Assembly (NCBI GenBank): GCA_032718475.1
Contig: JAUCBJ010009084.1
Location: 1 to 64,000 of the forward strand
Direction: 5' to 3'
DNA length: 64,000 nt
Origin: Nemertoderma westbladi
Taxonomy: Eukaryota > Animalia > Xenacoelomorpha
The notes beneath the pieces were generated by a model. It saw only the letters and a program-made list of their open reading frames with translations, was not told the origin of the DNA and searched no databases. Position 1 is the stretch's first letter; each line of letters starts with the position of its first letter. The position numbers and the translations under genes were made by a program. Shown one piece after another: positions 1 to 56,021 of this stretch.

Positions 1-202
1 GCGACATCTAACTGATTTACCCACAGTGTAATTAGTTACGTAACGGAACCTTATTGGGATATATATATATGTATATACGCGCATAATGGAGAAGGAAATT
101 TGAGCGCAACCGCGGAGAGGATTTACTGCCAGAGAGGAGGCGGAGCTGCCATTTGCCCGACCGGGATGTAAGGATTCGAATGTTTACTACCACGGTAGGT
201 CG

Positions 203-1252
203 GTGATGGAGCTAAATGTGAAGTATAAACCCGCTTATGATAAAGAGTTAAGGAGGGAAAGAATGAGAGCGTTGGGGGACTGTATGGAAGTTTTGCGGAA
301 AGAGTATCGCACTCGGTATCCCTACGATTTCGCGTTAGACGTGTGCGACATTAGCGCAGACCCGGACGAGGAGATTGCGCAGCTGTACCATATGAACATG
401 TATTTACGACACAAAGAGCCTTTACCTGCAGTCCGAGATCAGTTCGACGGAATGCATCTGTATCGGAGGACTCGAGGCGAGGATCAAGAGACGTCGAAGG
501 TCTTCAGTGTATACAAGTTGTTCTACAAATGTGGTGAATGCATGAACAAACAAGACGTAGCAATTCCCGACCGATTGGACGAGCATCATCCTGAACCGAT
601 ATTAACGCGATGTCAAGCTCATCAGTTCCTTAGATATAACGAGGGAGGTTACCCAATGAGCAACCCGATGATCAGTATCGACTTCAGCGGAAAGCAACCT
701 CCAAGACCCATTACGCCGACCGTTACGACTTTAGATCCGTATACGGAGATTAAACCCTGTTCGACACCCAGTTTGATAGAGACAGCAGCGGCCATTTCGC
801 TGTACCGAGCCTACAAGGACCTAGAGGCGCGGCGCGAAGCAGCACGGGACTCGGGTACCAAACCTGCGGGTTTGGAGCTCTCAAGTCCCTGGACTACGTT
901 TACTTCGCCTCATCGAGTGAGAGCTCTCACGCCTGAGCATCAGGACGACATAGACGCGTTGCGGCAGGAGGAGCGAGCGGCGAAAGCGAAACAATTATTC
1001 GAAGCGCGGATAGCGGAATATAATAAGACCGCGGATAGACATCAAGAGGAGACGAGGAGAGTGACCGGATTTGTTCCACAGGCCGTATCTCAACCCCGAC
1101 CGGTGTATTATTCCGACGGTAGCGAACCTGCGATATTGGTAGATCACCTGGAGTCGCGAGAAGCGATTAGATTCTTGCCGATGGTGAGGATGTCGGATCA
1201 TTTGGAACGTCGACTGTCTACGGGAAGTTTTATGCGCGAAGTTCTTGCGTGA
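203..1252 (+). CDS. Accessory ORF of element A, N-terminal part (unknown function; CxxC..H..CxxH possible Zn site); probably once fused to the downstream exonuclease
   Basis: 349-aa ORF; frame extends to ATG at 86 across one TGA; homologous to element C remnant (YPYD motif); overlaps the next ORF at an apparent 1-nt frameshift. Confidence 0.6.
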   Translation: MMELNVKYKPAYDKELRRERMRALGDCMEVLRKEYRTRYPYDFALDVCDISADPDEEIAQLYHMNMYLRHKEPLPAVRDQFDGMHLYRRTRGEDQETSKVFSVYKLFYKCGECMNKQDVAIPDRLDEHHPEPILTRCQAHQFLRYNEGGYPMSNPMISIDFSGKQPPRPITPTVTTLDPYTEIKPCSTPSLIETAAAISLYRAYKDLEARREAARDSGTKPAGLELSSPWTTFTSPHRVRALTPEHQDDIDALRQEERAAKAKQLFEARIAEYNKTADRHQEETRRVTGFVPQAVSQPRPVYYSDGSEPAILVDHLESREAIRFLPMVRMSDHLERRLSTGSFMREVLA

Positions 1253-2099
1253 TGTCCCGATGCAGATCACAGACTACGACACATTGGATAAGATTGGAGC
1301 TCCGGGAAAAGAGAGTAAGTTATTTGGATGGTTAGACAAGTACATTAAGGTATGGGTCGCAGTGGCTACATTCCCAGATGACGAGGAGGTAGACCAGGCG
1401 TGGCTGAGGAGAAAGGGATCTTACACCCGATATGACGACCACAAGGCTATCGAGCGCATGTGGACCCCATCCGACGAGATTCAGCGTCAGTGGAGGAAAA
1501 CGGAGGAATCACTGCAAGATTGGAAAGTGATGTTTTACGACAATGAAGGAGGGTCTCAACAGGAATGCTTGACTAGTAAGTGCATTCAAATTCGCGTGGC
1601 CGATGGTGTGACTCATGTGTTTATGCGCGTAAGGGCGGATAGAGAGAGACCGGAGCCCATAATCACGGCGCAATATCGGAAAGGGAAGGATCCTAGGGAA
1701 CAGATTTTGGAGGTATGCAGGCGAGGAGGTATGCACGGAGCGGAGCGTATCGATGCCAGGATGCTACCCAAGAAGGTTAGAGAGGCGATTCTTAGCCAAG
1801 ATTACGTCAAGGTGGGATCGGGAGTCCAGAGCGATTTGGAGAGTGACTTCAACGCCATGACTGATTTAGAAGATAGATTGCCGAGACCGTTTGTCGACAC
1901 CAAGCTATTGTTGCTATGGGCACAAGACATTGGAATTTATAGGGAGTATCCCAACTCTGCCAAGACTGGTATGGGCTTCATAGCACATTTATTGTATAAT
2001 TGGGACTTCAAGTTGAAGACGCAGAAGAGGAAGCGTATGGTGAATATAACACGCCACCGGGAGCGGAGTTCAAATCCCACTTCAAGCGGCAAGCGTTAG
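1245..2099 (+). CDS. DEDDy 3'-5' exonuclease domain (WRN/EXD2/Mut-7-like), retrotransposon-encoded; C-terminus frameshifted, continuing to ~2301
   Basis: ExoI VMFYDNEG, CIQI, LPKKVREAILSQDYVKVGSGVQSD (ExoII), FVDTK, GMGFIAHLL; ExoIII-like QYYLVLE in a shifted frame at ~2137-2157. Confidence 0.75.
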   Translation: MRDVPMQITDYDTLDKIGAPGKESKLFGWLDKYIKVWVAVATFPDDEEVDQAWLRRKGSYTRYDDHKAIERMWTPSDEIQRQWRKTEESLQDWKVMFYDNEGGSQQECLTSKCIQIRVADGVTHVFMRVRADRERPEPIITAQYRKGKDPREQILEVCRRGGMHGAERIDARMLPKKVREAILSQDYVKVGSGVQSDLESDFNAMTDLEDRLPRPFVDTKLLLLWAQDIGIYREYPNSAKTGMGFIAHLLYNWDFKLKTQKRKRMVNITRHRERSSNPTSSGKR

Positions 2100-2520
2100 T
2101 GTATTGGAACATTTACGCGCCACCCCGTGCGTCACACAATATTATTTGGTGCTTGAGTCGAACACGGTAACTTGTTTATAAGCGGATATCATTGCGCGAG
2201 TTTAGAAGCGTCATTCATTGGTGTTCGGAGGACGATTGGTGTATCTGGGTAGGGGGCGAAAGAGAGGAGCGAGCCCGAAGAACCCAGGAGCGGGTCAGTA
2301 ATGCATCGTATCACGGGGCGACAGACTCTAGATATATACATCATCGTCGCTCTGATGTATATTGTAGCATTTGTAAATATCCGACTTGACACATATACAC
2401 TAGTCGCACTGATTTGGATTCATATTATGAGAGAGGCGAAGGAGGTGATTGGGGAGACAAACCTGCGGGTTTGGCTTACTCTTTTCACCTACCCTAGCAA
2501 AATTTTTTATAATTTGAAAG

Positions 2521-2660
2521 TATTTTGTAAATTTAATTTGTATGTAGCAATCATTATGTAGAACGAATGAGAAACAGTATTTTTTGTAAATTTAATTTGT
2601 ATGTAATAATCGTTAACATTGAGAGAGAGATAATATTTTGTAAATTTAATTTGTATGCAA
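2521..2660 (+). repeat. Three copies of TATTTTGTAAATTTAATTTGTATG in the 3' UTR of element A
   Basis: Direct repeats ~57-60 bp apart; also present inverted at ~48010-48150. Confidence 0.7.
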
Positions 2661-2818
2661 TTCATTATGCAATATCTATAGCAATATTTGTAAATAGTAG
2701 AATTATTATAGTACCAAGATATTTAGATTATTTGAAAGAGATTTATTTTGTTTTGTATACATCGCCTTACACTCTTCTACAATTGGAGGGAAACATTGCA
2801 TGATTTCCCTTGGAGCGG

Positions 2819-4250
2819 TGTTACGGTATATGGCGCTGTACCTACATTATGTAATACATTAGTCCGTTATACAGTATAATAATGTTAGTCCATTATGCAT
2901 TATAATATATTAGTCCATTATATAGTATCATATATTAGTCCGTGATGTAGTATAATTATTTAGATAAGGCATAATGCGCAATGATATTTAGATAAGGAAA
3001 CTGAAACGCCCATATATTTTGAACTCATCCATTTTGTATAGTATGTAGCCCTACCTATGTAGTTTTGTAATAGGATATAAGTAGATAGTTCCAGGGTAGC
3101 AAGTCCTTGTTGGACCCTGGATCTGGGCTTGCCGTTATTAGCCTTGATGAGGCTAGCTACTGGTTTTAATTTCTCTATAATTGCGCTAAATTTATATTTG
3201 TGCATGATATTATTAGTACCGCCAAATTAAGCATCGGGAAAATTACCTTATATGGTGGCAATTTGCGATTTCAGGGAGCAATAGGCTCACAATCCGGCTC
3301 TCTTATTGGCCTAACTGCTTCCAGGTTGGTCTAATGTTAGCTCGGATTGCGGAGCCAATGAGAGATCGATTGCATCACCCTTCTCAAATCACCTATAAAT
3401 TGGCGTACTTCCATTGTCTCTACACACACCCCACACAGCTCACCTTCAACTATTATTCGATGCTTAGTTTTTTCTGTGTAAATTACTGCCCTTTTGATTT
3501 TCTTGCAATGATTCGCTAATTTGCAATTTCTGTTTGATTCTTGTTTGTGTTTCTCAATCAATCTCAATGATCGCTGTTAATTACAAATTGGAACTATGAT
3601 TTCTACCCCTTAGTAAATGGTTCTATGTGATTCCTTTCGACAATAATCCTACGGGATTTCTCAGACTGTCAGACTTTGTGATTTGCATGTGCCGCTACGG
3701 TAGCTACTCATTATGATGGAGGGCTAGGGTACCGGTAAGCGCGGCGGGTGCATCGGGGGGTTAGCGACGACGGGAGTGCGGAGGATTCAAAGACAAGTGA
3801 CATTGGGGGGATTACTATTGCGCGCAAGTTTGCAGCGTAGAGTGGGTCAGATACGCCGGTTCGGCAATTAGGGGCTGATGATCCAGGTTTTTGTAGCATT
3901 TTGTAGTATTAGGGGGACAGGAATTGGGTTAGTTAGGAAGCCTAGACGTAGCCGGGAGAGATCTGTGTCCTTTACGTTGCGAGTTGCGAGTTGTGAATTA
4001 CTAGCTAAACTGTAGATTGCGATTGTTGTTATGCTGATTGGTGCGTTACTAAAGTGTGCCTAATAAATCACGAATGCTTGGATAGGCGCTCTTTTCCCCT
4101 TTGATTGATTTCTATTTCTTAGCTTACTGTAATTAATTTCTGATTAGGTCGAAAATAATACGGTATTTTAGGCTGTTGCTAGTGTGACCCGTTGCGTAAT
4201 AATTTAGAATTACGCACTCTGGAATACTTAGTAATTAGTACGCCGTTACA
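2819..4250 (+). repeat. LTR of family A (~1.43 kb)
   Basis: TGTTACGG...CCGTTACA termini, preceded by GGAGCGG; CCAAT ~3356, TATAAA ~3395, AATAAA ~4062; matching termini in the inverted copy. Confidence 0.7.
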
Positions 4251-4315
4251 TATTTGTGACTGAAATTAATTAGTAAAATTAGGAATTTGTACGCTGCATA
4301 GCGGAGGGTAGTTAA

Positions 4316-5872
4316 CCCTATTAGTACCGGGCTATAAAATGTTGTACAAATACCGGGAGGGGGTCATATTGACCCCCCCCCCTCTAAAATCTACAAATAT
4401 TTACGAAAACGTCTGATTTTTTGTTTGTACTTAGGTATCACTTGTCTGGATCCGACCGAAAAAAAAAAAATTTTCGAAAAAATGTACTGGGGTGGTTATA
4501 TTGCAGCACCAAAATTACAAGTAGTGCACAATTTTCACAAAATTTGAAAGTTACATTTTCGGCTAATTATTTTTCAATACAGGTTTTCTGGGGTGCAAAA
4601 TACATTGGAAAATATTTAAAAATGATATGATTACTATAAATGGCTGTTTAGTCCTCTCTGCGTAGGAAAAAATGAAAAAAACAAGTAACCAGCACTTTTC
4701 AGTTAGAACACAAAATTTTTAATTCACTTATACGATGCTATAAATTCACATTTTCAGGTTTTCGAGGGCGTTGATTCTAATGGAATATATTTCTAATATG
4801 CCAGATCATTGCTACTTGTATTTTTCGGCGCAATTTGGCAATTTTTGGTGCTAGCACCAAATTTCGTACCCATCACCAAAAAGTACAAGTTTGCGATGTC
4901 CAGTGCTGTTTTTATGGATTCCATCGGATTCAGGACCCTCATAAACCCGTATAACGCAAGAAACAAGGTGATACTATCTCCTGATCAATTTGCATATTTT
5001 CCAAAATTTGGTGCTGGCACAACAATTTTCACCCACTGGCGAAAAATACAAGTTTGAGAACTCTTATGAAATTTTTACTGATTCCATTGAATTCAGAACC
5101 ATCACAAACACGTATAACGCAAGAAACAAGGTGACACAATCAATTGATATATTTGATGGTTTTCAAAATTTGGTGCTAGCACCACATTTTGCACCCATAT
5201 CCGAAAAATACAAGTTTGAGATGTCTAGTTCGATAATTATATATTCCATTGAATTCAGAACAGCCATAAACCTCTAAAACGCAATAAATAAATTGTCACA
5301 AGCAATTTTATCTATTGAATGAATTTTCAAAATTTCGTGCTAGCACCAAAATTTGCACACAGCACCGAAAAATACAAGTTTGATACGCTTGGTGCAACTC
5401 GTATATATTTCATCGAATCCAAAACCCCAAAAAACCCCAATTGCGTAAAAAACAAGTTTCAAACAATCAATTTACAAAATTTACATAATTCAAAATTTGG
5501 TGCTGGCACCAAAATTAGGCACCCACCGAAAAAAACAAGTTTGAAATTTCTAAATCAATTTATATGAATTCCATCCAATTTCTAACACCAAAAAACCGGT
5601 GTAAATAAAAAAGAGATGTTACAATTCATATTTAATGAAATGTAATTTTCAAAAAACGTCTCAAAAAAAGTGCCAAAAGTAGGGTTAAAAAATGGTGCTA
5701 TAACTCGAAAAGTACCCAATATTTTTGAAAACGGTTTTCACTACTAGGAAGACAATAGATTTTTAGGAAAAGTCATAAAATTTCAGATTCCCAACTGCGT
5801 TTGTTTCAGAATTATAATAAAAAAACCACGGGGGGGGTCATATTGACCCCCCCCCCCCCGGGTTTAATAGGG
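4316..5872. mobile_element. piggyBac-like non-autonomous element (TTAA TSD)
   Basis: TTAA at 4312-4315 and 5873-5876; TIR CCCTATTA..CCGGG; subterminal GGGGTCATATTGACCCC at both ends; empty site visible in the homologous copy at ~46395-46410. Confidence 0.9.
4845..5515. repeat. ~163-bp degenerate tandem repeats, each with a palindromic TTTGGTGCT(A/G)GCACCAAA core, inside the piggyBac-like element
   Basis: Five cores at ~4845, 5008, 5170, 5335, 5498. Confidence 0.7.
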
Positions 5873-6489
5873 TTAAGGTAATAATTTAGAGTACCGTACA
5901 CTATTCACGCTGGGCGGTTATTTGAATTAGCGGACAAAATTCACATCGTAGTATACAGTACGCAGCGCGCATCAGTAAATTGCTGGCCTAAAGCCAGCCG
6001 CAGATAAGTTTGAGTCCCGAAATAATTACCGTACCGATTTTCGATTATTTTAAATATTCTCACATTCACACATTCCGTTAGGGAACCCCAGTATTGCGAT
6101 TAGACGTGATTAGAAAAGACGTAGTTGTAAGCACAATTTTACAGTAATATTAGGCTATAAAATACACTCTGAGTGTCAAATCTCTCACACTCGTTTTAAG
6201 TCAGCTTAGGGAGCCGATTCGGGTTTATTGTTTTGGTTATTCCCGCGTGGCTCATATATTCGAACAGTTAGCTCTCTATCGAGTAATCGGTAGAGAAAGG
6301 AATGAGAATTTAGTAGGAGCCGTAGAAATTTAGGAAATATATTAGCGGACGGCAGATTAGCGCCATCCAACGGTAAGTAGTGGTTTTCCGTATCTGAAAC
6401 CCTATATTAGTAATTATACGCTCCTGATTGCCCCGTCTAGTAAATAGAGCAGTTTGTGTCTTTATTGGTTAGGCTGGGGTAGTTCGTTT

Positions 6490-6935
6490 AACAGTAAAGG
6501 ACGGTATTATTTTATTGCACACAGCAACAGTATTATTTACTGTTACTTCGTAACAGTAAAGGACGTGATATTGGCTGTTGCTTGCAGCAGTAAAGAGTGT
6601 ATTCAGCATTAGATTACTGTATTATTTACTGATACTTCGCAACAGTAAAGGATGTTTTTTGTTTTGCTGTACTGCGTACAGTAAAGTACGAATTAGATTA
6701 CTGTATTAGGCACTGTCTGACTGTACTGCGTACAGTAGAACATAGAGTGTATTCTTAGGCTGTTAGTTTAGATTACTGTATTCACTGGTTGCATACAATA
6801 GTACAGTAGTACATTAGGCTGATTGCTGTTACTGCATACAAGTAGAAAATACATTTGTTTTGCTGTACCGCACACAGTATTCATTAGGCTGTTAGGTTGG
6901 TGTACTGTTTTACTTACTGTACTGCGTACAGTGGA
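6490..6935 (+). repeat. Array of short hairpin repeats in the 5'UTR of element A
   Basis: Recurring TACTGCGTACAGTA and ACTGTTACTTCGTAACAGT palindromes. Confidence 0.6.
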
Positions 6936-15060: not shown

Positions 15061-15064
15061 TTCG

Positions 15065-20552: not shown

Positions 20553-20574
20553 ATAAACTTATTCTCTATCATAT

Positions 20575-20915
20575 CATAATAACCTAAACTAGCACCGGTA
20601 TTGCACTGAGATAACTGAATTGGTATGATTACTGCCAAGTGGCTATATTGCACGGTTGGCCTTGTTACTCTACCTAATCGATGCCTTTCCCCCCTCTGAT
20701 TGGTTGATACCCTTGTTGGCGCCCTTTGGAGTGTTCCCGTTCACTCCACCTATTCTCTCTGGGTTAGGGGTTTGGCCCCTGACCCTCTATTGTGTGCTTC
20801 CTTCCCACTCTTATTGGGATGGCACGAGTTGGTTAATTATCCAATCTCGTGGCTCCCAATATTGCTTATCGGCTTATAACTTTATGGGGTATTAGCGGGA
20901 TTGAATAAGCTAACA
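20575..20915 (-). repeat. 3' LTR of element B
   Basis: Matches 30503-30843 except the terminal dinucleotide and one substitution that I can see. Confidence 0.93.
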
Positions 20916-20924
20916 CTCCCCCCC
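20916..20924 (-). other. Polypurine tract of element B
   Basis: GGGGGGGAG directly before TGTTAGC on the minus strand. Confidence 0.8.
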
Positions 20925-21814: not shown

Positions 21815-22774
21815 TCAGAGTGGCCCGGTTGTCTCCCTCTGGTGGCGTCCCATAGGATGATTGAGCAAACTTATCATCATCCAGTCCTCCTGCAGGATAT
21901 ATCGCTTCTGATATACCTTTATCGCTCCCCTGCGGAACTGATATACCTCCTGCTTTCCCGGTCTCGCTCCCCACTTTAGCGAGTTCGCTAGTTCTGCTCC
22001 GTATTCTTCCTTAAACTTCGCCCAATCCATTGGTTTGTGGCATGCGAGCCCCAATAATTGGCCCATCGCCACCGCCCCGCATTGGCCTGTGTTTTCGACT
22101 ACCCCCAACCCATCCGGTGCCGTCATAGCCATAAAGACTTTCTGCATATCCAGGAGGTTGGTGGCGTCCGGACCGATGATTCTCTCCGCATCCTCGCGAA
22201 TCGCCGATCCCACTTTCGTCGTCGACTTCTCTCTTACTAAGACTTGTACCGCTTTCGGTAACCGGTTTAGTTTCGGCCCGTCCTTCTTCCCATACGTCCC
22301 TAGGTCGAATAAGAAGATGTCCCCATTTGGCGCGGCCAAATGTAGGAGTATGGTCCTGGCCGACCCCGCCGTTCCTCGTCTCGAACCCGCCTCGTCTTCC
22401 ACGGTTCCCTCGTCATCTAGGATCATATATCCTCCTCTGTTGACGGACTCTATGAATCTCTTCCAGTCCTTCCTCGGTGATTCCCTCGGGTATTTCGGAA
22501 TCCCGAACTTCGCCTCGTCCCCTTTCACCACATAGTGGAAGTGTTGGAAGATCGCGTTGTCCAGCGACGGGGTCCCGTAGGTCACGACCAGCCGCTGTTT
22601 GTGCACCTCCCGGAAGTGATCCTGCAGCGCTCGTGCCGCGTGACTCCTTTCCAACCTCTCGTAGTATCCTCTCGTCTTCTCTTCCGGATGCCTCTCGGTG
22701 AAATCCACCAGTATCTCCTTTCCTCCTGACTCCGCCTTTCTCTTTCTGATCAACTTACTCGCCATTCCGAACAT
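21815..22774 (-). CDS. DEDDy 3'-5' exonuclease (WRN/EXD2/Mut-7-like), retrotransposon-encoded
   Basis: ExoI YMILDDEG; LLHLAAPNGDIFLFDL; LPKAVQVLV..KVGSAIRED (ExoII); LLDMQ; ExoIII QKRYILQED; uninterrupted 319-aa ORF. Confidence 0.8.
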   Translation of the reverse strand: MFGMASKLIRKRKAESGGKEILVDFTERHPEEKTRGYYERLERSHAARALQDHFREVHKQRLVVTYGTPSLDNAIFQHFHYVVKGDEAKFGIPKYPRESPRKDWKRFIESVNRGGYMILDDEGTVEDEAGSRRGTAGSARTILLHLAAPNGDIFLFDLGTYGKKDGPKLNRLPKAVQVLVREKSTTKVGSAIREDAERIIGPDATNLLDMQKVFMAMTAPDGLGVVENTGQCGAVAMGQLLGLACHKPMDWAKFKEEYGAELANSLKWGARPGKQEVYQFRRGAIKVYQKRYILQEDWMMISLLNHPMGRHQRETTGPL

Positions 22775-23270
22775 TCACTCGCTCACCTGCAAGGTGGTGC
22801 CTTACCAAGGCGCAATACAGATGAGTGATGTATCTAGGATGTTCTGTACAGTTCGATAATGGCCTATTTCCTACTCAACTGCGCCTTTTAACCTAAAATA
22901 TTCCTAATTAATTTTGAAGCTAGTAAATGAGCGTAATTTACAATTTCTGTCCGTTACTTTTATTATGTTCTAGAATAACTTCCCTTGTGTTGCCACTATT
23001 TTACAATTTTCAGCCCTATTCTATTTATTTTTATCTATTTACTTTGATTCTACTGTCCTACTACTTACTACTGCCTATGGATTATTCTATTCTCTAATCC
23101 ACATTCTGGCCTACTCTGTATTCTGGCCTATGCAGTACAGCAGTATGCGTCGTGTGGCCACACGATTTATCCAGCTGTACTCATATGCCCCCCTCTCTCT
23201 ACTAACTGCTAACTAATACCTATATCTATATCCCCTTTTACCTCTCTCTTACTCTCTCTCTTCTTATTAA

Positions 23271-24060
23271 CGGTACTTACGTACCCTCTAACTCTCTAAC
23301 TAACTATCGGTACTACGTACCCTCTAACTCTCTAACTAACTATTGGTACTACATACCTTCTAACTCTCTAACTAACTATCGGTACTACGTACCCTCTAAC
23401 TCTCTAACTAACTATCGGTACTACGTACCCTCTAACTCTAACTAACTAGCGGTACTACGTACCCTCTAACTCTCTGACTAGCAGTACTACGTACCCTCTA
23501 ACTCTCTAACTAACTATCGGTACTACGTACCCTCTAACTCTAACTAACTAGCGGTACTACGTACCCTCTAACTCTCTGACTAACTAACGGTACTTACGTA
23601 CCCTCTAACTCTCTACTACTACTACTACTATGATCGGCATGCTGCATTGCAGCTGCATTTCTAAGAATGCTGTGCCGGCTTGTCAACAAAATTGCACCGC
23701 CACAACTCCCTATCACCCATGACATTTGCTAGATCATCCGCATCTTTAAGGCCAGTGTCCTTTAAGATGCGTCTCAAGAAAGTCATGGGCTGTCCACCAT
23801 GCTTATTCACTCCATGAGGCTGCCAAAGTACAAGCTCTAACTCTCTAACTAACTATCGGTACTACGTACCCTCTAACTCTAACTAACTAGCGGTACTACG
23901 TACCCTCTAACTAACTCTCTAACTGGCGGTACTACGTACCTCCTAACTAACTAACTAATGGTACTTACGTACCCTCTAACTAACTCCCTAACTGGCGGTA
24001 CTACGTACCTCCTAACTAACTAACTAACTAGGTACTACATACCTTCTTACTAACTCTCTG
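23271..24060 (-). repeat. ~30-35-bp minisatellite with GGTAC-TAC-GTACC hairpin and CTAA/TTAG runs, interrupted by ~200 bp of unrelated sequence (~23630-23835)
   Basis: Repeated ggtactacgtaccctctaactctctaactaacta. Confidence 0.85.
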
Positions 24061-24242
24061 CCTACTAACTGCGTACCTACCATGTACTATTTTTTTTATT
24101 TTATTTTATTATTTTGTTTGTGGGAAGGGCGTCTCGCCCTCAATCCTACCCCCCTCAGTCCAAAACTTGGACGACTAAACTTTTCTCTAACTCTGCTAAG
24201 GTGCCCCTTCTAATAGACAGGTAACACCTCTGCCCGCACCTT

Positions 24243-26900
24243 TTACGGATCTAACTCTTCCATCCCAGTCCAACCTGTTGGACAACTCAGCGACCCAAGG
24301 GGTGATTCCTCCAGCAGGCAACTCTCCCACTGCCCCCCTATAGGTTCTCTAATTCTTCGCTCCGCTCTCCTTGTCAATTCGATAGGTGGTCTTTTCTCCT
24401 GTTTTTGCAAATGCTGTCTGTTATTTATGTTTCTGATCTCGTGGTTGTCCCTTGGCGGCAAAGTGCCACCCTTCAACGTGTCACCCGGCGGTATAATGCC
24501 GCCCCTGTTCTTCTCCTTAATCTTAGATGCCACCTCTGCTGGCCTCCCCCTTAATATGTGTGCTGGCATTAAAGGCTTCAACGACCCCCGTTCGTCCTTC
24601 GGTATACACGATGTCTGCCCATGTAATGCCCCCTCGCACTCTGTCAGTTCCGCGTGCGTACGCAGCACGCCTCCTACTCTCCCGGCTCCTTTTTCCACCA
24701 TGTGTTTATTCATGGGCTTATCTGCCCCTTGTCTGATCGTCTCACATCTTCTCCCTTTCCATCTTGTATTTTTACTCGGCTTCCCCCTTGTCGGTATGCT
24801 TCTCAACCGGACCGGCGTCTCTTTCGGACGCTCCTCTGGACACTCCACCGGACACTTCTCCGGTTTGTCCTCCCGACACTCCACCGTCCGCTCCTCTCCA
24901 TCTCCATACCGATACTTGCTGGGACCCTTATTCCAACCCATCGTCTCTAGATCTTCTGCATCCATACCATTCTCCTCCGCCCACTCTCTTGGTGTTGCTT
25001 CTACCTCTAGCTGTCTACCACTATTGCCCATCTCTGGCCTCTCCTCTATCTCGTCAGTTCCTGGCACCATGCATCCTGAACTCTCGGACACATGGAATGG
25101 TATATTACTCTTAATTGGGCCTGTCAGTGTCCACCCGAATGGTGTTAATATGGCCACCGGGTCACTCTGCTTGTCTTCGCCGAAGACCGTTTGCATTCTT
25201 TCGTGGGCCGTTGGGCAGTCCATGCCTACTATGATGGACACCTTCCTAACGTCCACGTCTGGAATTGAGAAGTCAATGTCGTCCAGGAATTTATACTGCT
25301 CGACCTCGATGTTGGTTGGCCGCCTGGCATTGATATTAATTGACTCTATCACTTGAATGGGGTCGATGGTTGCCCCATAGTCGCATCCTGGTGCCACTGC
25401 TGCAATTGCGCACCGTCCTGTTCTCATCTCAAGGATCTCATCTTTGCTAGAGATGGTTGTTACCGCCATCCTGCTTGGCCTCGTTCTCAATCCTATCTCC
25501 TCGGCCACCCATTCCTCGACTAATGTGAAGGCAGCTCCACTATCAACCAGCATTAGTGTTGTTACTGATCGATTGCCTTCCCCGATCACTCGTACTGGTA
25601 CTACTCCAAGTAGCACCGTTCCTCTCTTCTTCGCCCCTACTGTGCTCGTCGCCATCGTTTGGCCTCTCCTTTGACCAAATTTCATTGGCTTCTCCTTGCA
25701 CTCCCTTGCTCTATGTCCACTCATTACACATCGCGAGCAGATTTTATTGCTGAACGCATAATCTATCTGATCTTGCCTAGGTAGCGCCTGCCAGTACCTG
25801 CAGTTCATAGTTTGATGAAGCGCATTTGCGTGTAGCTGACATTTGCTCTTTGGGTCGTAGCCCTCTTTATACAGTGCATTGCGTATCGCAGTTGCGTTCG
25901 TACCAAAGTCCCTACTATTCTTATTGTTTGGGTTTTGCCTATTGGACGTACTGGGGTTATGTTTATTCGTGTTATTATTGTTTCCCTGTCCGTTCCATGG
26001 TGTTGTCTTATCCTCGGCTAGCTGTGGACTTGCAGTCCCCTGCGTCGCTGCATATGGCAATGATTGCCTGAGTCTCGGTAATGCGTTCGATGTGTTGTGC
26101 TCTGGTTTCGGTCTATGGTAGTCTGTCTTCGGTCCCTTTCCCAGGCTGTCTTCGCTATAGACTGGGTCAGTTATTAGTTCAGCCTCGTAGTTTAAGAAGT
26201 TTGACATTTCTTCTAAACCCGGTTCCGCACCCTTCTTATCTCGAGTGGAGAAGGCGATTTTCCTCCACTTGTTGCGCAGCCAGTTTGGTAGTGCCTGCGC
26301 TATCGTGGTGATGTTGTTGGACGCATTGAGCTCGTACGGCGCGTCTAGCGTCTTCAGCACGATTAGCGCCTTTTCGACTTTGTTAGCGAACGTCTTAATG
26401 CTAACGGGATTATCCTGTAGGCCACCCGATGTTATGCCTCTCAGCGTCTGCCTGATGATCTTGGCCGGGTGCCCGTATTCCCTATCCAGTGCCCGCCATG
26501 CTGTCGTGAAGCCGCCCTCTATTCCTTGATATTGCCTCACGATGTCGTATGCTGGGCCTCCCGTGTACACTTGTAGATACTTTAGGCACTCCGCCTGCGT
26601 CAAGTTTTTTGTTAGTATTTCGTTACTATACATGCGCCGAAACTGTAGATATTCTTCCGGCCTGCTCCCATCGAATTTGAATGGTTCCACGGGTGGTAAC
26701 TCGATCCTCGTTTTCAACGCATCGATCAACGTGGCCATCCCCATCGCCTGCGCTTCCAGTGGATTCGATGGGTGCTGCATAGTTTCTCCTGTCTGGTGCG
26801 TTCCGTCTGTCCTATTTCTTGACTTTCTCTGACTTGGGTATGTCATCGGGGGTAGCGGCCCCCTCCATATGTCTGTGTCACACGACCTATTCTCATCCAA
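24243..26900 (-). CDS. gag: BEL/Pao Gag (capsid, Zn knuckle) - aspartic protease polyprotein; pol deleted
   Basis: PFKFDGS..EYLQF, LKYLQVYTGGPA, CSRCVMSGHRAREC, LVDSGAAFTLV, TPFGWTLTGP; only a possible integrase-tail remnant (PLMPAHIL). Confidence 0.85.
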   Translation of the reverse strand: MDENRSCDTDIWRGPLPPMTYPSQRKSRNRTDGTHQTGETMQHPSNPLEAQAMGMATLIDALKTRIELPPVEPFKFDGSRPEEYLQFRRMYSNEILTKNLTQAECLKYLQVYTGGPAYDIVRQYQGIEGGFTTAWRALDREYGHPAKIIRQTLRGITSGGLQDNPVSIKTFANKVEKALIVLKTLDAPYELNASNNITTIAQALPNWLRNKWRKIAFSTRDKKGAEPGLEEMSNFLNYEAELITDPVYSEDSLGKGPKTDYHRPKPEHNTSNALPRLRQSLPYAATQGTASPQLAEDKTTPWNGQGNNNNTNKHNPSTSNRQNPNNKNSRDFGTNATAIRNALYKEGYDPKSKCQLHANALHQTMNCRYWQALPRQDQIDYAFSNKICSRCVMSGHRARECKEKPMKFGQRRGQTMATSTVGAKKRGTVLLGVVPVRVIGEGNRSVTTLMLVDSGAAFTLVEEWVAEEIGLRTRPSRMAVTTISSKDEILEMRTGRCAIAAVAPGCDYGATIDPIQVIESININARRPTNIEVEQYKFLDDIDFSIPDVDVRKVSIIVGMDCPTAHERMQTVFGEDKQSDPVAILTPFGWTLTGPIKSNIPFHVSESSGCMVPGTDEIEERPEMGNSGRQLEVEATPREWAEENGMDAEDLETMGWNKGPSKYRYGDGEERTVECREDKPEKCPVECPEERPKETPVRLRSIPTRGKPSKNTRWKGRRCETIRQGADKPMNKHMVEKGAGRVGGVLRTHAELTECEGALHGQTSCIPKDERGSLKPLMPAHILRGRPAEVASKIKEKNRGGIIPPGDTLKGGTLPPRDNHEIRNINNRQHLQKQEKRPPIELTRRAERRIREPIGGQWESCLLEESPLGSLSCPTGWTGMEELDP

Positions 26901-26958
26901 GGGTCTCGTTGTTCTTGCTCCTATCGGGGTATATTGTTGATATTGTGATGGGGGAATG

Positions 26959-29900
26959 TCACCCTGTCCCCCCCCCCACCGGTATGTTTGGTACTGGGGT
27001 TGATGTTAATATGTTGGGGCCCATACACCTATCCGCAATAATTCCCCCCTCCCCTGGGTATATGTTATGTCCCTGCATGCTGTAGTCATACTGCTGTGCT
27101 GGTACCGGTATAGGCCTATCAGCTTCTGGCCTACTCGCCGGTATGTATTCCGCGACTTCCGGGTTTAATCCCGTTGTCCACGCCATCCTATCGCCTACAT
27201 TGCCTCTCTCAGTATGGCCTATGGTATGTGCAGTAAGGCCTACAGTATGTCCTACAGTCTGCATGTGTCGCTCGGGATCGAAGTTTATTCTTCTCGAATA
27301 ATCCTCCCCGCGGCTACCGTATTCTCGATCGATAGGTGTATTCCGTCGGAAAGTTTCTCTTCGACCCCCCCCCTCTACTGTTCTCATCTTCGTACCGGTA
27401 CATCGCGTACCCCTCCATCGGCGCGTAGTGCGCCTCGCCGGGTCGCATCTCTCCGGGGCGACGGCAATCTCCCGGAGTCCGACCCCACTGACTCTCCGTT
27501 CTCATCTCAACTACCGACGGCTCGCTATCCGTCCTCGCTCTTCTATCGTTCGCGGCGATACCTCTACTACTGTCTTCTCTTCTTCTCCTTTCAGTGGAGT
27601 ATTCCCGCTCGTGAGATCTCTCGTCGACCTCCCGGTTAAACCCCACTGTTCTTCTTCCCTCTTCTGATCGGGCTCGACGCTTCGTCCGCCCTCTTACGAC
27701 GTCAACCTGTCTCTCTCTGCTCGGTCGCACGCCGCTGGGGATACTCGCAATCCCCCTATTACTTTCCGTCGCCGGTTGTTGCGGTTTACCTATTTCGGCC
27801 CGCGCATTATCCGCTGACGGCTGTGGGACACTCTCTGCCCCCCCCCTTTCGCCGCTAACTCGCTGTTGTGGGGTTCTCGTAGCCCCCCCCCCCCCCCACT
27901 CGCCACATCTAACTTCGCTACTCCTCACCCCGCTACTATATCCCTCTCCAGTCGACACATCAACCCTACCGCGGTCGGGTCTATTCACCCCCGCCTCTCC
28001 CTCTGCTATTGCGTGGCCTACCAGGCCCTCTACTCCCTGCCTACCAACTATGTGGCCTACCAGGCCCTCGCTGGGTCTACCTAACCCAGCCACTCCCTGC
28101 CTACCAACTACGTGGCCTACCAGGCCCTCGCCGGGTCTACCTAACCCAGCTACTTCCCTGCCTACCAACTACGTGGCCTACCAGGCCCTCGCTGGGTCTA
28201 CCTAACCCAGCTACTTCCCTGGCCTACCAACTACGTGGCCTACCAGGCCCTCGTCTGTCTGGCCATACACGCCCGACGTGTTTACATTAATAGCACCCGT
28301 ATTGGAAACGGAATTAATTTGTTCGTTCGAAATAAAATCATTTGAATTATCTTGCGCGACTACACTATCTGAATTATTTTGTAAATTCGGGCTCGCTGAA
28401 TTATTTAAGTTATTTAGATTATTTTGTGTTATTGCATTACTTAAATTATTTTGTAAGTTCGAATTTGGGTTATTACTTTGATTAATTGGATTATTTTGCG
28501 TAGCTACATTAATATTAGAATTATTTTCTACATTAGTATTAGGAATGTTCTGATTTAAATTTAAATTACTACCACTAAGTAAAGTATTTCCTGCAATAAA
28601 GGTTTGATTAGAATTGTCCCACACGGTACTATTAATATTAACCACGTCTACTGTACCATCATCATTATTACCCCCCCCCCCCCCCCCCCCCCTCCCGTAC
28701 GGTCACACCAGTTTTGAGTCTGTCGTGCGGTCCCTGTAAGTGGGGTATTAATAAATGTATCCACGGCCCCCGGCTCCTCAAAAATACTCGAGCCAGCCTC
28801 GCTCTCAGACTCCCCCATCTGCGCCAGTTCCACCTCACGCGTGTGTACAGCTTCACACTCTACGAGTTTGTCTCGCTGTTTCTCCAATTCTTTTCGCTCA
28901 CGCTCCACTTTTGCTATTTTATCCATAGCCTCCCGTTCGGTCTGCTTGGCCAATTCCACCTCTCTCCTAATCCCCTCCCTTCGCCTCGCCTCACGCGCTC
29001 TATGCTCACTCTCCTCCCTCACTTCACGCTCTCTGCGTTCACTTTCCTCCTTCGCTTCACGCTCTCTGCGTTCACTTTTCTCTCTCGCCACACGCTCTTC
29101 TTGTTCCTTCAACTCTATTTCCTCATACTCCCTGAGGCTCCTCACGGCCCTTTCGGCCCTCTCTCTTATCTCTCCCATCGACGCCATTTCCCTCTCCATC
29201 AGCACTCTCCCTTCCTCTAGCCATCTACCTACTTCTCTATTACCTTGCACTGCTAGATTGAGACGATGCCTAGCGTCTATCTCTCTCACCCGTCTTTCTT
29301 TTGCGGAGGATGTAGCAGACTTATCGGTTGTGGAGGATTCCCTCCGCCTTCCCGATCTACTAGCTTTCCCCCTCCTCCCGGAACTCCCTCCGACCGACGA
29401 GACCGAATCCGCGGGGTCAGCCTCGGATTCGCCCTCCTCAGGTCTGTTCCAACCCACTAATTTTACTCCCCAGGCATCGACCAAGTATGGCCCTATGTAC
29501 ACTGACGCTACGCTAGGTTCCATACTCCCACATTCCCATAGTTCAAATAGTTCGCTGGCAACCCCTTTTGCTCTCTCCTCGGCTAGTTCTCTCTGCCCAA
29601 AACGCATTAGGTAATTAAAGTGTCTATCCGACTCACCTAGTCGTTTCCTCAGTCTCACCTCGTCTATCTTCGCCCCTTCCTTCTTAGCGTCCTTTAGTAG
29701 TCTTTGGGTCGCGTTGTAGGCCCGTCGGAGTCGATCAGAAACCCCGACGTCCTCGTCGCCGATCTTTCGTCCGTCTCTCCGGGTCCGACGTCGTACCGGC
29801 GGCCCCACCATCGCCGTTTCGGCGGGCCGTCCGTCGCCCTCGGCCTGTAGCTGGCCGGTGACATCGGTAGCGATGTCTCCTTCATCTCTCTGCATCCGGG

Positions 29901-30204
29901 GTCGCACCGTCGGCCCCACCGTCGCCGTTTCGGCGGGCCGCTCGTCGCCCTCAGCCTGTGGCTGGCCGGCGACACCGGTGCGTCGACCCCCGTCCCGTGT
30001 CGACTCGTCTCCGCCTCCCTCCGTCTCGCTCTCTCTCTCTCTCGGTTCGACCTCGGGTTCCAGGCCCCCCTCGTCCTGAACTGCCGGATGACCCGTTACC
30101 GATGGGTCCGGCGTTGTGGGCCTGTATCGCCTGGTTGCGGCCTCGCGGATCGTTAGCTCTTCGTCCGGGGTCCGCGTCGGTGTGGTGTCACCTGACCGAC
30201 TCAT
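26959..30204 (-). pseudogene. gag: N-terminal part of element B gag (coiled coil, Asn-rich and repeat segments), split mainly at G/C homopolymers
   Basis: Consecutive ORFs 30204-28648, 28645-28211, 28168-27314, 27387-26959; frame changes at poly-C 28671-28692, ~27364 and ~26968. Confidence 0.7.
28013..28252 (-). repeat. ~60-bp coding tandem repeat (EGLVGHVVGR) with GGCCT-ACC-AGGCC hairpin
   Basis: Five copies of gtggcctaccaggccctc. Confidence 0.85.
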
Positions 30205-30502
30205 CTCTCTTCTGCAGATTGGTGACTGGTGGTTTAGCTAGTTTTACAGTTTGACTAGGGCGGCAGCTCGATTTAGTTACTGCCGAAGGGTTTAGTTACT
30301 GTGACGGGATCCAAGAGGGATCCCGGTTTATCCGGTTTTAGTTCACGCGTCCCCGCCGTGTATAAAGAGTGAATGAGTTCTGATGTTTGTCGTATATAAT
30401 ATGATAAGTGGATATAGATACAGATATAGATATGGGATATATTGTTGTATATGGAAGGCGGGATATGGTAACTAAAGTCCCGGTCCTTCCCTAGCTAAAC
30501 TA

Positions 30503-30843
30503 TGTAATAACCTAAACTAGCACCGGTATTGCACTGAGATAACTGAATTGGTATGATTACTGCCAAGTGGCTATATTGCACGGTTGGCCTTGTTACTCTA
30601 CCTAATCGATGCCTTTCCCCCCTCTGATTGGTTGATACCCTTGTTGGCGCCCTTTGGAGTGTTCCCGTTCACTCCACCTATTCTCTCTGGGTTAGGGGTT
30701 TGGCCCCTGACCCTCTATTGTGTGCTTCCTTCCCACTCTTATTGGGATGGCACGAGTTGGTTAATTATCCAATCTCGTGGCTCCCAATATTGCTTATCGG
30801 CTTATAACTTTATGGGGTGTTAGCGGGATTGAATAAGCTAACA
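30503..30843 (-). repeat. 5' LTR of element B
   Basis: TG...CA termini, 341 bp. Confidence 0.95.
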
Positions 30844-50927: not shown

Positions 50928-51108
50928 CAAGGTAAGTTTGACATTTGGACATTTCGACATTTTGACATTTCGACATTCTGACTTTGTTGATTTATTTGTA
51001 CCGGTTAGGGTATATATATACTATATATACCAAGGTAAGGTTGACATTTCGACATTCAGATACTTTGACGTTTTATTACCCGTACTTGACGCATATAATA
51101 AGACATGA

Positions 51109-54100
51109 GTGACACACCCCATTCGACTCGATACCCCTACCGACTATGACTCGTGCGACCCGGACAGATCGACAGTAGACGAACCGAGAAGGAGAACCCG
51201 AGATTCTACCGATGTCACACCGTGTGCGTCACCGGTACCCCGAACGGAATTACCGGAAGCCGCAACGCGTGGCGACGGCAGAATCGAAGATTTCCTTGCC
51301 GTCCCGCAGACCAGATCGCGGGAACCGAACATGGTAAGTTCGACTGGAAGCCAGGAGAACATTATTAGGAGTATAGGAGGACACATGGCCCAGATTACTC
51401 GAAACTTCGGAGAAGGTTTTCGCCTTTTACGCGAGTTAACCGCCCCAATGTTGAGATACGAGTTCTACGCCTTACAGGTAAGGATAGAAAGTAGGGTACA
51501 TGCTTCCATAGATAAACTTAAAGGTTTACACGAACTTGCAGAGTTGCGTGGCGACAACTTTACTCAGGTAAAGATAATCGATAAGTTGGTAAGTGCGAGG
51601 GAAAGCCTCATTCAGTTTAAGTCGGTTGAAGGATCGACTCATCAAGAACAACTCAACCAACTGTTAGGTGAGTCAGTTTCGGATGCGTTGTTACAACCCG
51701 AAGAGGAAGAAGAACTATACTGCCTGGACGGGAGGTTAGGGACGCTCACCAATTTTCTTCGTAGATGCGGAGTACCGATCGAAGAACCGGAAGTTGTACC
51801 GAGAGGGACGACGGAAGTTCTATCTACGGAAGGCTCGCGAGTCTACCAAATTCCACAACTGGATAGATTGTTCGTTAGTGTACGGAGCGACGTTGGCGAC
51901 GTTGGCGACGTTAGTAGAACAGCGTCTGGAATTACTCGACAACAACAGGAGGTCGCACGCCGACAACAAGACGTCTAGGAAGAAGCGCAACGGCAGATGG
52001 CGCAGATCGCCATCGAAGGAGAAAGACAGCGCAGAGAGGATGTAGCAAAACTTGCGAAACTTCAAGTGCAGGCTGAGTTCGAAGCATCAGAGATGCGGAG
52101 ACTGGAGGAAGACTTAGCGCGAGAAGCGGCCACGGCGGCAGCAGCCAACGAGTTAGCATGACAGGCAGCAGTGGCAGCAGCCAACGAGTTAGCACGACAG
52201 GCGGCAGCTGATGAGTTAGCATGACAGGCGGGGGCTGACGAGCTAGCACGAGTTGCGGCGGTAAACGCAGCTGAGTTAGCACAGAAGAAAGCAGCATCTG
52301 ACGCTTGTGCCAAGTTGGAGGCGCGACAAATAAACACTCATTTAGCTATACAGGAAGCGGAGTAGGCAGTACAACAACAGGAAGCAGATCAACGCGAAAG
52401 GGAGATGCAGCTCCAGTTCAAACTAAATCGCAGATCGCGCGAGGCGGCGAACGCGCAAGAGGACCTCGAACTCGACGCGAGAGATCTATAAGATCTATAA
52501 GGTCTCGAGCTGGACACGACTTGTCTGCCCTGGATCGCATGGAGACTCGATATTGCGGAATTCAGAAGCGAATCGAGGAAGGAAGTGTGGGAGCGATAGA
52601 CCGAGGAGAGGAGTTCGTCAAGGATTACTGTAAACGTTTTCCCCAAGTTATTCCTATGCTCAAACCCACGACTCCAGTAAAACCGGTTATGGTTGCAAAA
52701 CCGAACGAAATATCACCCGTGCAAGGTAATAGGTTTGTTATGTCGGAATCAATTCCGCAGGCACGAGCGACTTCATCGCCGATTCTCGCAGGTAAGATAA
52801 GTAGTACACCTACTGTAAACCGTAGTTTACTTGTAGAGAGAGACGAACCTGCGTTTATGACAGTAAAACAGGTAAGTAAACCATTACAAGTTAAACCTGT
52901 GACGTGCTGCGCGAACCCAGTCATTTATAAACCTACAGTAGAGCTTAACTCTGATGTTTTTACTAAACCTCTCACCCAATGTTTATCGAGGCCTACGACT
53001 TCGTGGAAGGCTTGTGAGCCTACCGAACAACGGAGGAGGATGGATGTGGGTAGTACCCACAGGATCGAACTGAGTTCAACGAGACCTACGACTTCGTGGA
53101 AGGCTTGCGAGCCTGTCGAACAACGGGGAGCCGTTATCCCAGACCACGACGAACTCGACCAAGAATAATACGCCGGACGCAAACCCGCCAACCACCTTAT
53201 CCGGACGACAGCGACTCATCTAGCGACTTGGAATCGACGGAACGGGAAATATTCTGTACTGGAGCGGCAGCGGCAGCGGATAACAAACGGGAGGAGAGAT
53301 CAACGAACCCATACATTGACAATCCACCATGAGAAACACCCCAACAGAAACTCTCTTTGCAAAAAGCGGAAGCGATCAGCACCAACAGACTCGCCGAAAT
53401 AATGCGACCTGTAACGGACCGACTAGCTCAGATAGAAGAGCGACTCGAAGCGCAACCGTCGGATCGATCACGAACCAGCGTGGAGTTAGAACAACCTGAA
53501 CAACATCAACCACCAAGGAGAGAAAAGGAGACTAGACAGACCCCGACCCATCGAGAAGAAGATCCCGTAAATAATTCCTACCGATGAACAATGCGCGGAA
53601 GGGAGCGACTGGACGACGCCACCGAACAGGGACGCGGACAGTTGGATTTGGTTAGCGAGATTGCGAAATTCGCGGCTAGATACGGATTACCGGCACAGCA
53701 ACCACCGAAGTTCTCTGGCAACGCGAAACACTGGCACTCACTGGTAGACTACGTAGAGTCCCAGATCGCTAAGTGTGCTTTCACCTCAACGGAGAAGTTT
53801 AATTACTTGCTCCTAGTCCTGTCTGGTGAGCCGAAACGATTAGCGGAAACCTTTATTGGTGTTCCCGATTGGCATACGACCGTTTGTATTAGATTTACGG
53901 CGGTAACGTCGCCATGGCTAAATCCATTATCGAAGACCTCTGTAGAGGAGGCAGCATTTCGAAACCGATCGATCTTCTACGACTCGCGGACGAAATAAAA
54001 AACGCTATAGGGACTTTACGGTCCATTGGACAACTCGAGTACGCTAACGCACCGACGGTTCTCATCAGGATAATCGGTCGACTTCATTATCGACTCCGAC

Positions 54101-56021
54101 GAGAATGGCGACGCATCGAGTACCAGCGTGAAGAGGCCGGCGGGCTATTAAAACTCACCGACGTCTATCAACTGATTTCGCGGGAGGCCGTTATCGAGAC
54201 TCGATCGAATTATACTGATCACCATATCGCGGCAGAAGGGATAGCTATTTCTGCGCCGAATCGGACTAAACCGTTTCCGACGAACGCGAAAGCCGTTACC
54301 TACGCCACCCCTACTGAGACTTCTAATGTTCTGATGCCTATCGGCACCACGCAGCCACGACAACAGTTGCCGGCAGACTTTGTGGGATGCTCATACTGCG
54401 AGCGGAACGGCAGAAACCATAGCGGACATAAACTTCGTGGATGTCGCGCTTTTAAAGAGTTAGGAATCGAGGAGAGGAGACTCCAAATACGATCTTTAGA
54501 TTCTTGCTGGAGATGTACGAAGCCAGGACACGTCTGGAAGGATTGCCCGAGCGATGATACATGTCCTCTGTGTGGACGTAACCATGACGCGTTACTTCAC
54601 ACTACTAGTCATACTCCGACCAGACGCTTTCGACGAGAGCATCCAGATAAAGCGGCTAGATGCGACGCACTATATAAGGACCGTGCGCCGCACGAGATCC
54701 GTACGTTTTATACGGACTGCATGGATCAGTCAGGATCATCGGACGAGTACGAGGAGGAAGACGACACTTTCTATGTGCATGCAGGTGAGGAACAGCCATC
54801 GGTAACGCTCCTCACACAGAACCAATTGAAAGGGTTTAGCGTGATTCCTATAAAGATTACCGGAACCCGAGGGAGCAAGCGTATATACGCTATCTTAGAC
54901 TCTGCGTCATCACACAGTTATGTCGACGAACAAGTAGCCGACGTGGTTACGGACATGAGTCAAGATAAGACTGCTCAGTATACTGTAAGCAGCATGCATG
55001 GTAAGAGAGCGATCCCTGTGATGAGAGTGAAACTAACCTTAGACACTCTTCTTTCCAAAGCGGAACACAGCAAGGAGGAGCGCTCATTACTTTCGGTAAG
55101 AAATTTGACCTTTGCAGCTACGAAGGACTTTAGTAACTTGCTCGGCCCTGTGCCAGAGCAATCACCGGAAGATCGTAAGTATTTCTGACACCTTGGAATA
55201 CCGGAATGTCCTGTTAATTATCGTTCCATTGCGATGTTAATTGGGACAGACCAGTTTAACTTACATCAGGTATGGGAGACACACCTATCTGTTATTACAG
55301 CGGGCAACCCCTACGCATGTAGAACTCCCATAGGTTGGTATACTAGAGCACCAATACGTTCACTAGAGGTAAGTGACCAGGAGGACGATGTTTTGAGTAC
55401 GTGTAGTTTATTGACTACTACGATAGATAACTCTCCTTCACACTCCCGTGGTCCAATTGTACGGACGGCACTATGACAGACTTGCGTCGATAACGCAGAT
55501 GCCACCGATACTGACGTAACTGATCTGGACACGACCACACGGACCTCTGACTTACAACTACTTGCAGTAAACCAGGTTGTATTGACTACCGAAGACCAAA
55601 GGGTTGTTGCTGTGGATGACTCGATGAACGAGGATTTTGGAAGGCTTGCGAGCCTACCGAAAAATCCAAAGGTCATTGACCCCACCCACCAGGCTTCGAC
55701 ACCGGTCGTTGATCTAGGAAGGCTTGCGAGCCTACCGATAGATCAAGAAGTTGTCGAACCGCCACACGACGATTCGACGCCGACTAGTGACACCAGAGGG
55801 CTTGCGAGCCTACCAGACGCATTGACACTAGCCACCGCAGCGGACGAAGACGTGGACGCGGACCATGCCGCAGTGCAAGCAGCGCTTGACCGACTGCTGA
55901 CTGAACGGACCATTAAATGGTTGGAACAGGATTCAGCAGAACCCAGTAGTTACGAGACCGCTATGTCAGAACAGGAAAAATGGTCATTAAATATTAAGAG
56001 AGATACCATGAGAGAGTCCTA
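51109..56021 (+). pseudogene. gag: Element C gag-protease (multiple stops and frameshifts)
   Basis: PPKFSGN..W, CWRCTKPGHVWKDC..CPLCGRNHDALLH (BEL-type knuckles), YAILDSASSHSYV. Confidence 0.88.

Follow-up and report, generated by a model that had tools for sequence, protein, structure and literature searches.

In DEDDy enzymes four acidic residues hold two metals, with which nucleotides are taken off single-stranded 3' ends; the Juno and Vesta retrotransposons, which carry genes of this class, belong to the Ty3/gypsy lineage. DEDDy ORF3s have been known since 2017 from two LTR retrotransposons of bdelloid rotifers, Juno and Vesta, and from the Terminons/Athena; their catalytic residues are intact or changed from DEDD to DEED, activity is untested, ORF3s are typically made from spliced messages, and 3' processing or a mut-7-like role is proposed (PMC5408684), the finding being restated in PMC5718144 and PMC6431247. 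The words BEL and Pao are absent from PMC5408684, in which variation was tested only for env and GDSL ORFs, whereas purifying selection on the exonuclease ORF is reported here. A DEDDy exonuclease domain is also inserted in the transposase of the Dada DNA transposons (PMC3706591), and KolobokD DNA transposons carry a DEDDh exonuclease (PMC9587614). Dada and KolobokD resemble the element described below (element B) as mobile elements with a DnaQ-like exonuclease for which 3'-end processing in transposition has been proposed; they differ from it in being DNA transposons. A candidate precedent in the Penelope element 'Hydra' was discarded, since neither DEDD nor exonuclease occurs in bioRxiv 2021.04.23.441226.

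For BEL/Pao elements, the ICTV profile of the Belpaoviridae gives gag, pol and env-like genes only, and a normal element length of 4.2-10 kb (PMC8742986). The terms exonuclease and nuclease have no occurrence in the main text of PMC3118150 and PMC13524379, nor has exonuclease in that of PMC3248453, and no exonuclease-bearing BEL/Pao element was found in a literature search that stopped short of subscription journals, Repbase entries and supplements (e.g. the element files of PMC3118150). A sequence-only reading of the present locus had known of no description of such an ORF in BEL/Pao; DEDDy ORF3s in LTR retrotransposons are not new, as the 2017 report makes clear, and what appears to be new is the BEL/Pao host. 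The DEDDy-exonuclease cargo is thus known and BEL/Pao is apparently a new carrier, one more retroelement superfamily to be added to the rotifer LTR elements, Terminons and DNA transposons that have such cargo.

Element B together with its ORF3 does not amount to a system of a new kind, and its exonuclease function is predicted. Juno and Vesta likewise have a stand-alone DEDDy-type ORF with an altered acidic motif, placed behind pol where env would lie; they differ in the presence of a dUTPase and in the motif, which is given as DEED there and is D-E-D-E here. The cellular PF01612 exonucleases (WRN exo, EXD2, Nibbler/Mut-7, RNase D/Rrp6, EXD1) share with the product of this ORF (ORF3-B) the predicted fold and the ExoI/II/III layout, and differ from it in that ORF3-B has YxxxE(D) and is 9-19% identical to them in structural alignments.

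Layout and affinities of element B

The window, i.e. the whole 64-kb stretch of DNA that was analyzed, is eukaryotic and repeat-rich, with 417-bp satellite arrays broken by LTR elements, which sit inside the arrays or are cut off by them; a 100-base N gap lies at 44907-45006. Element B is LTR-bounded, lies on the minus strand and measures 10.3 kb. Its features, in the direction in which it is read, and the arrays are:

30503..30843, minus strand: 5' LTR of element B, 341 nt, TG...CA
30485..30502, minus strand: primer-binding-site (PBS) position, which starts TAG, not TGG
26959..30237, minus strand: putative 5' region of gag, assigned from its position and broken up into four frames in this copy
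24243..27005, minus strand: gag-protease ORF, 920 aa, with DUF1759 at aa 111-249 and an aspartic protease at aa 470-527 (Pfam)
22775..24242, minus strand: non-coding spacer upstream of ORF3-B, with 36-bp tandem repeats at 23271-23615 and 23835-24055
21815..22774, minus strand: ORF3-B, 319 aa, on the sense strand of element B
20916..20924, minus strand: polypurine tract (PPT), a G-run that adjoins the 3' LTR
20577..20915, minus strand: 3' LTR of element B, which begins TG and is without the terminal CA of the 5' LTR
14957-20552, 30836-45290, 49055-50646 and 63172-63605: 417-bp satellite arrays, the longest of 33.8 copies

The order is 5' LTR, split 5' gag, 920-aa ORF, a 1469-nt spacer counted from the gag-protease stop, ORF3 open over 319 codons, 889 nt, PPT and 3' LTR, which bears out the 319-aa open sense ORF that the sequence-only reading placed before the PPT and 3' LTR. 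The LTRs (339-341 nt) are identical at 338 of 339 aligned positions (20577-20915 against 30505-30843, 1 mismatch), and the insertion is therefore young. There is no target-site duplication at its borders (20553-20576, 30844), and about 130 nt of a satellite unit are missing between the flanks.

In common with BEL/Pao elements (PMC8742986; PMC3118150), element B has LTRs, a PPT, a DUF1759 Gag and a protease. The LTR length falls within the 0.2-1.2 kb given for the group, the PPT at 20916-20924 agrees with the expected ~10 nt before the 3' LTR, and 10.3 kb is an ordinary BEL size at the top of the range. The gag-protease ORF scores against Pfam with E 6e-11 for DUF1759 and E 2e-5 for the aspartic protease, and Cys/His knuckle-like motifs can be read in it by eye. 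DUF1759 marks the Gag capsid region and is tied to BEL, and a BEL-type Gag is further indicated by likeness to a metagenomic locus (L145) that has Peptidase_A17 and DUF5641; the range of E values against metagenomic BEL loci is 3e-7 to 0.02. Six such loci gave no exonuclease match, and all six end at or before the integrase end, too short to bear on a wider distribution of ORF3.

Element B differs from described BEL/Pao elements in having no RT, RNase H or integrase, a non-canonical PBS, and the nuclease ORF3. Neither RT nor RNase H nor significant integrase similarity was found in element B by Pfam, by profile comparison or by comparison with a sister element in the window. Of the PR-RT-RH-IN set expected in Pol only the protease is present, and element B is therefore regarded as a non-autonomous derivative and not as a complete BEL/Pao member. 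The sequence-only reading had placed ORF3 behind a 'pol remnant'; the position is right, and what precedes ORF3 is a protease domain with a tail. A candidate integrase remnant in this tail (24540-24647), likened by eye to the sister integrase, was rejected as not significant (E 0.42). Since element B has moved recently without RT or integrase, it would borrow both, possibly from an autonomous relative that supplies them in trans, and Gag, protease and ORF3 may have been retained when the other parts of pol disappeared or degenerated until they could no longer be recognized. For the PBS of BEL/Pao elements a complement of host tRNA-Arg or tRNA-Gly is expected and element B starts TAG; a TGG-type primer site is lacking both in element B (30485-30502) and in a second family in the window, family A (6494-6511). 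No significant complement of the PBS region, as for self-priming, was found in the LTRs of element B or family A, and the 64-kb window has no tRNA genes.

Motifs and predicted fold of ORF3-B

The true start of ORF3-B is probably the ATG at 22765, giving 316 aa, because the first ATG varies among relatives. Just upstream, at 22780-22792, the minus strand reads as both splice acceptor and donor (CAG/GTGAG). An exonuclease domain is predicted at about aa 95-305, a basic RKRK stretch lies at the N-terminus, and no helicase, HRDC or polymerase domain was detected in ORF3-B. Its motifs come in the order ILDDEG (D120, E122), LPK..KVGSAIRED (D195) and YILQED (Y292, E296, D297), and are collinear over ~180 residues:

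22409..22417, minus strand: ExoI, D120-x-E122, aligned with a D and an E that are invariant in 69 bacterial PF01612 proteins
22190..22192, minus strand: ExoII, D195 in KVGSAIRED, an invariant column and the best-scoring stretch in the profile comparison
21881..21901, minus strand: ExoIII, Y292-x3-E296-D297-W298, with Tyr retained and Glu where the references have Asp

D120, E122, D195 and Y292 fall on invariant columns of the 70-sequence alignment, and the ExoIII register aligns E296 with the reference Asp; next come D297 and a Trp that the references also have. The motif order ILDDEG, KVGSAIRED and YxxxE/D given in the sequence-only reading holds, whereas the canonical ExoIII YxxxD is absent, with Glu at +4 and Asp at +5; ORF3-B is therefore termed DEDDy-like and not canonical.

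Curated and sequence searches returned little. Pfam, the comparison with PF01612 that had been proposed included, gave no match above cut-off for ORF3-B, whole or trimmed, or for the family A ORF; phmmer found no ORF3 match among 1.84 billion proteins, and a 5.8-billion word-indexed search with ORF3-B and with the A+B alignment gave near lengths only and no match. No ORF3 match was found among PDB sequences beyond two chance ones, phages and plasmids gave matches at chance level only, and viral and metagenome contigs gave none; the viral contigs also had no match to the sister-element RT. The ESM Atlas, on the other hand, returned PF01612 (DNA_pol_A_exo1) clusters as 24 of 30 matches for ORF3-B (best score 0.94, 181 shared features), the best of these clusters being named 'Werner syndrome-like exonuclease' with the family on 38% of its members, while the two top rows are Basidiomycota clusters without a name. 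The family A protein likewise gave PF01612 clusters as 24 of 30 (best 0.93, 167 shared features; family on 31% of members).

A DEDDy profile of 30 sequences was built from bacterial PF01612 proteins, a kind of profile that finds WRN, EXD2 and Mut-7 first in PDB. Compared with the 283 ORFs of at least 60 aa in the window, it ranked ORF3-B first (E 0.022) and family A second (E 0.43), both with weak scores; ORF3-B reached 7.9 bits against 3.1 for the best shuffle, and 0 of 1000 shuffles reached the score of either B or A. With hhalign 0 of 100 shuffles reached the ORF3-B or family A score, at probabilities of only 41% (B) and 4% (A).

The single-sequence AlphaFold model of ORF3-B is poor (pLDDT 32) and has no Foldseek match. 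When guided by a bacterial exonuclease alignment, AlphaFold gave pLDDT 66 and pTM 0.64, and the top Foldseek rows of this model were RNase D, Nibbler and EXD2 (E 3e-6, TM about 0.35-0.55); VIA-align matched it to the mouse WRN exonuclease with Z 11.8 and rmsd 3.0 over 168 aligned residues. The matches of the guided model are partly circular, because DEDDy proteins served as its alignment, and the model shows compatibility with a DEDDy fold and only that. The structure prediction called for in the sequence-only reading thus agrees with WRN, Nibbler and RNase D in its guided, partly circular form and fails in its single-sequence form. As to the WRN/EXD2/EXD1/Mut-7 pattern of that reading, the DEDDy-like character is upheld and the subgroup is not: VIA-align Z values of 11.3-11.8 are tied among WRN, Nibbler, Pol I, RNase D and Exd1, with a guiding alignment that is mostly EXD2-like, and on the model no subgroup within PF01612 (WRN/EXD2/Mut-7 as against RNase D/Rrp6 or Pol I) is singled out. 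Egalitarian is also among the fold matches of the guided model.

The DEDDy identity has several points against it, viz. the blank curated searches, the weak profile scores, the Glu at ExoIII and a family A ORF that is without an in-frame ExoIII. Together with the unguided fold at pLDDT 32 the blank curated-profile and sequence searches would suit a conserved accessory protein of another fold that bears a chance likeness to the motifs; that two proteins only ~20% identical each return PF01612 clusters from the Atlas and outscore every shuffle with the DEDDy profile, with motifs collinear over the length given above, makes such a coincidence very unlikely. It is accordingly with high confidence that a DnaQ/PF01612 fold is predicted for ORF3-B, with metal ligands D120, E122, D195 and E296 (or D297) and with Y292 as the DEDDy tyrosine.

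A second family, related copies and selection

A divergent counterpart of ORF3-B and a sister BEL/Pao element lie elsewhere in the window:

104..2099, plus strand: family A ORF3, divided between two frames, 104-1252 (N-terminal part) and 1188-2099 (exonuclease part)
1536 and 1809, plus strand: family A motifs, ExoI YDNEG at 1536 (reads D-N-E) and ExoII KVGSGVQSD at 1809, with no ExoIII in frame
2227..6493, plus strand: long LTR-like repeat of family A, ending ...ACA, with a second copy at 45758-48795 on the minus strand
7714-14943: BEL-like gag-protease region of family A, behind the repeat 2227-6493
51094..59703, plus strand: sister BEL/Pao element with gag, PR region, RT, Peptidase_A17, integrase and DUF5641 (Pfam)
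60387..60745, plus strand: fragmentary homolog of the family A ORF3 N-terminal part, with tblastn E values of 7.7e-5 and 0.002

Family A and ORF3-B are about 20% identical over the core, a pairwise score that 4 of 2000 shuffles reach, and despite this low overall identity the ExoI D and E and the ExoII D are common to both. The homolog that the sequence-only reading placed at the same position in family A is therefore real, by this comparison and by its own PF01612 match in the Atlas, and its ExoIII is missing from the frame; an out-of-frame continuation toward ExoIII was dismissed as weak and not significant, 191 of 2000 shuffles being as good. The N-terminal part of family A ORF3 (104-1252, 382 aa) has Cys/His residues and no Pfam match, and is absent from ORF3-B.

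The domain order of the sister element, RT, Peptidase_A17, integrase and DUF5641, is the BEL order, and the element is interrupted by stops and frameshifts. At 31-54% amino-acid identity the 7714-14943 region of family A is related to it. The fragment at 60387-60745, which is without the exonuclease part, lies 0.7 kb downstream of the sister integrase, and since a homolog of the family A ORF3 N-terminal part stands behind this integrase, ORF3 is placed in the post-integrase slot of a BEL element. An exonuclease and a complete pol on one element were not seen together in the 64-kb window. Other observations on these elements are the following. The LTR-like repeat of family A is about 3 kb long, or 4.3 kb where 163-bp repeats are inserted near 4316-5874, which greatly exceeds the 0.2-1.2 kb stated for BEL/Pao; the first copy stands between ORF3 on its upstream side and gag on its downstream side, an arrangement that resembles a tandem array with a common LTR. 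A MITE-like insertion at 12154-13413, with long inverted arms of 15-bp repeats, splits the gag-protease region of family A. In the sister element a 12-nt repeat tract at 57489-57834, between the RNase H and integrase regions, encodes Pro/Asp/Ser-rich repeats.

Contig pieces from four public runs placed at 80% likeness over 20916-23250 numbered 4623, 2963, 65 and 5, in identity classes from 99+% down to below 90%. Among the variants of the best 40 of 335 rows, 25 of 33 in ORF3-B are synonymous, where 22-31% would be expected in the absence of selection (binomial p 1e-10 to 1e-7), counts that represent a best-supported subset and not a formal dN/dS and that may derive from autonomous relatives. 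Five of the eight listed non-synonymous variants are near-fixed in the relatives, and these five differences are therefore private to this copy. Catalytic positions show no change among the listed variants (same best 40 of 335), and none of the listed indels (12 of 49) falls between 21818 and 22765. A few single contigs skip parts of ORF3-B, and loose contig ends at 21858-21864 in all four runs indicate that relatives diverge just behind the ExoIII helix. Parts of the region are also covered by five contigs of a run that carries another organism label and whose RNA nature is a guess; they do not count as evidence for transcription.

Synonymous changes make up 23 of the 29 variants listed for the gag-protease ORF, as against 2 of 7 in the tail behind the protease (best 40 of 584 rows). 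Summed contig depth, which is not copy number, is ~10x lower over this tail than over gag-protease, and two longer contigs continue there into different sequence, which hints that relatives differ at the tail and may include autonomous elements.

ORF3 is a maintained, multi-copy element gene under purifying selection. Host EXD/WRN-like genes would be an obvious source for a fragment captured once and left to neutral drift; since thousands of related pieces exist and synonymous changes are in excess, with no frameshifting indel among those listed (12 of 49), and since a second family has a homolog at ~20% identity, a capture of this kind is hardly credible. A one-off neutral capture or the failure of a DEDD fold to appear was what the sequence-only reading named as counting against it, and neither was found, DEDD-fold matches having come from the Atlas, the authors' own profile and the partly circular guided model. 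Its central claim of a DEDDy/DnaQ-like ORF in the env slot of BEL/Pao-type elements is therefore sustained, in two divergent families and in multiple copies under purifying selection; its 'lineage-wide' accessory nuclease is good for two families in one genome and overstated beyond them. Purifying selection and long retention, across two families ~20% identical, are what this locus adds for ORFs of this type beyond the rotifer work.

The DEDD fold can also persist as a pseudo-nuclease module, of which Egalitarian is an example, and EXD1 and Maelstrom are inactive DEDD derivatives according to PMC5408684. Retention of the ORF3 fold as an RNA-binding or scaffolding module is favored by the change from Asp to Glu at ExoIII and by the presence of Exd1 and Egalitarian among the fold matches. 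Against this, the ExoI and ExoII acidic residues are kept in both families at their low identity, an acidic residue remains at ExoIII with D297 adjoining, and these codons are untouched among the listed variants (best 40 of 335), so that a pseudo-nuclease is improbable.

Candidate roles of ORF3

ORF3 is probably an active two-metal nuclease made from a separate, likely spliced or subgenomic, message. Given such activity, the chances that its substrate is the element's own nucleic acid are close to balanced. The reading tentatively put first, at somewhat less than an even chance, is that ORF3, a predicted DEDDy-like 3'-5' exonuclease, acts during replication on the RNA or cDNA of the element itself, whose unpaired 3' ends it trims; its targets would be the genomic RNA at the 3' end, a primer, or, ahead of integration, flaps of the cDNA. 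This substrate is suggested because ORF3 has stayed intact along with Gag and protease in a pol-less parasite, whose genes are expected to help its own RNA. This argument is weakened by the fact that the selection signal may stem from autonomous relatives and that recombination could refresh ORF3; a separate ORF, moreover, has no obvious route into the particle, and a role directed at the host fits it equally well.

Host Nibbler/Mut-7 act on the 3' ends of small RNAs. An active nuclease turned against the host could over-trim or degrade piRNA/siRNA intermediates, or remove by-products that alert the host, and this counter-defence is the less likely of the two roles but a substantial contender. 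It agrees with a separate ORF in the slot of accessory genes, unfused to Gag or Pol, with the basic N-terminal stretch of ORF3-B, with Nibbler and Exd1 being among the tied top structural matches, and with the mut-7-like role suggested for rotifer ORFs in PMC5408684. The structural ranking cannot, however, single out Nibbler among tied Z values of 11.3-11.8, and a suppressor acting in trans would be a shared good that a pol-less parasite might be expected to shed, whereas the ORF is intact here.

The lead idea of the sequence-only reading was that ORF3 could proofread for the BEL reverse transcriptase, in the manner of nidovirus ExoN. The DnaQ-type fold and the Pol I exonuclease domains among the matches are in keeping with it, but ORF3 is unfused to RT or to any part of Pol, RT is absent from element B, and the relatives vary widely. 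Since 10.3 kb is an ordinary size beside a normal length of 4.2-10 kb (PMC8742986), there is no large-genome pressure for proofreading, and this role is a long shot that finds little favor here.

A broader and rather unlikely proposal is that an old BEL/Pao lineage encodes an active Nibbler/WRN-type exonuclease that acts against piRNA/siRNA silencing or as a trimmer of a non-tRNA primer and that is kept even by pol-less derivatives; the primer variant is raised because both families are without a canonical TGG primer site. If true, a Nibbler/WRN-type anti-silencing or primer nuclease would represent a recruitment independent of that in the rotifer elements. That one class of enzyme has been recruited to the env slot more than once suggests a common unsolved step in the life of retrotransposons, for which nucleic-acid end processing and escape from small-RNA silencing are candidates, and the compact, intact single-domain protein of 316-319 aa encoded by element B makes the question directly assayable.
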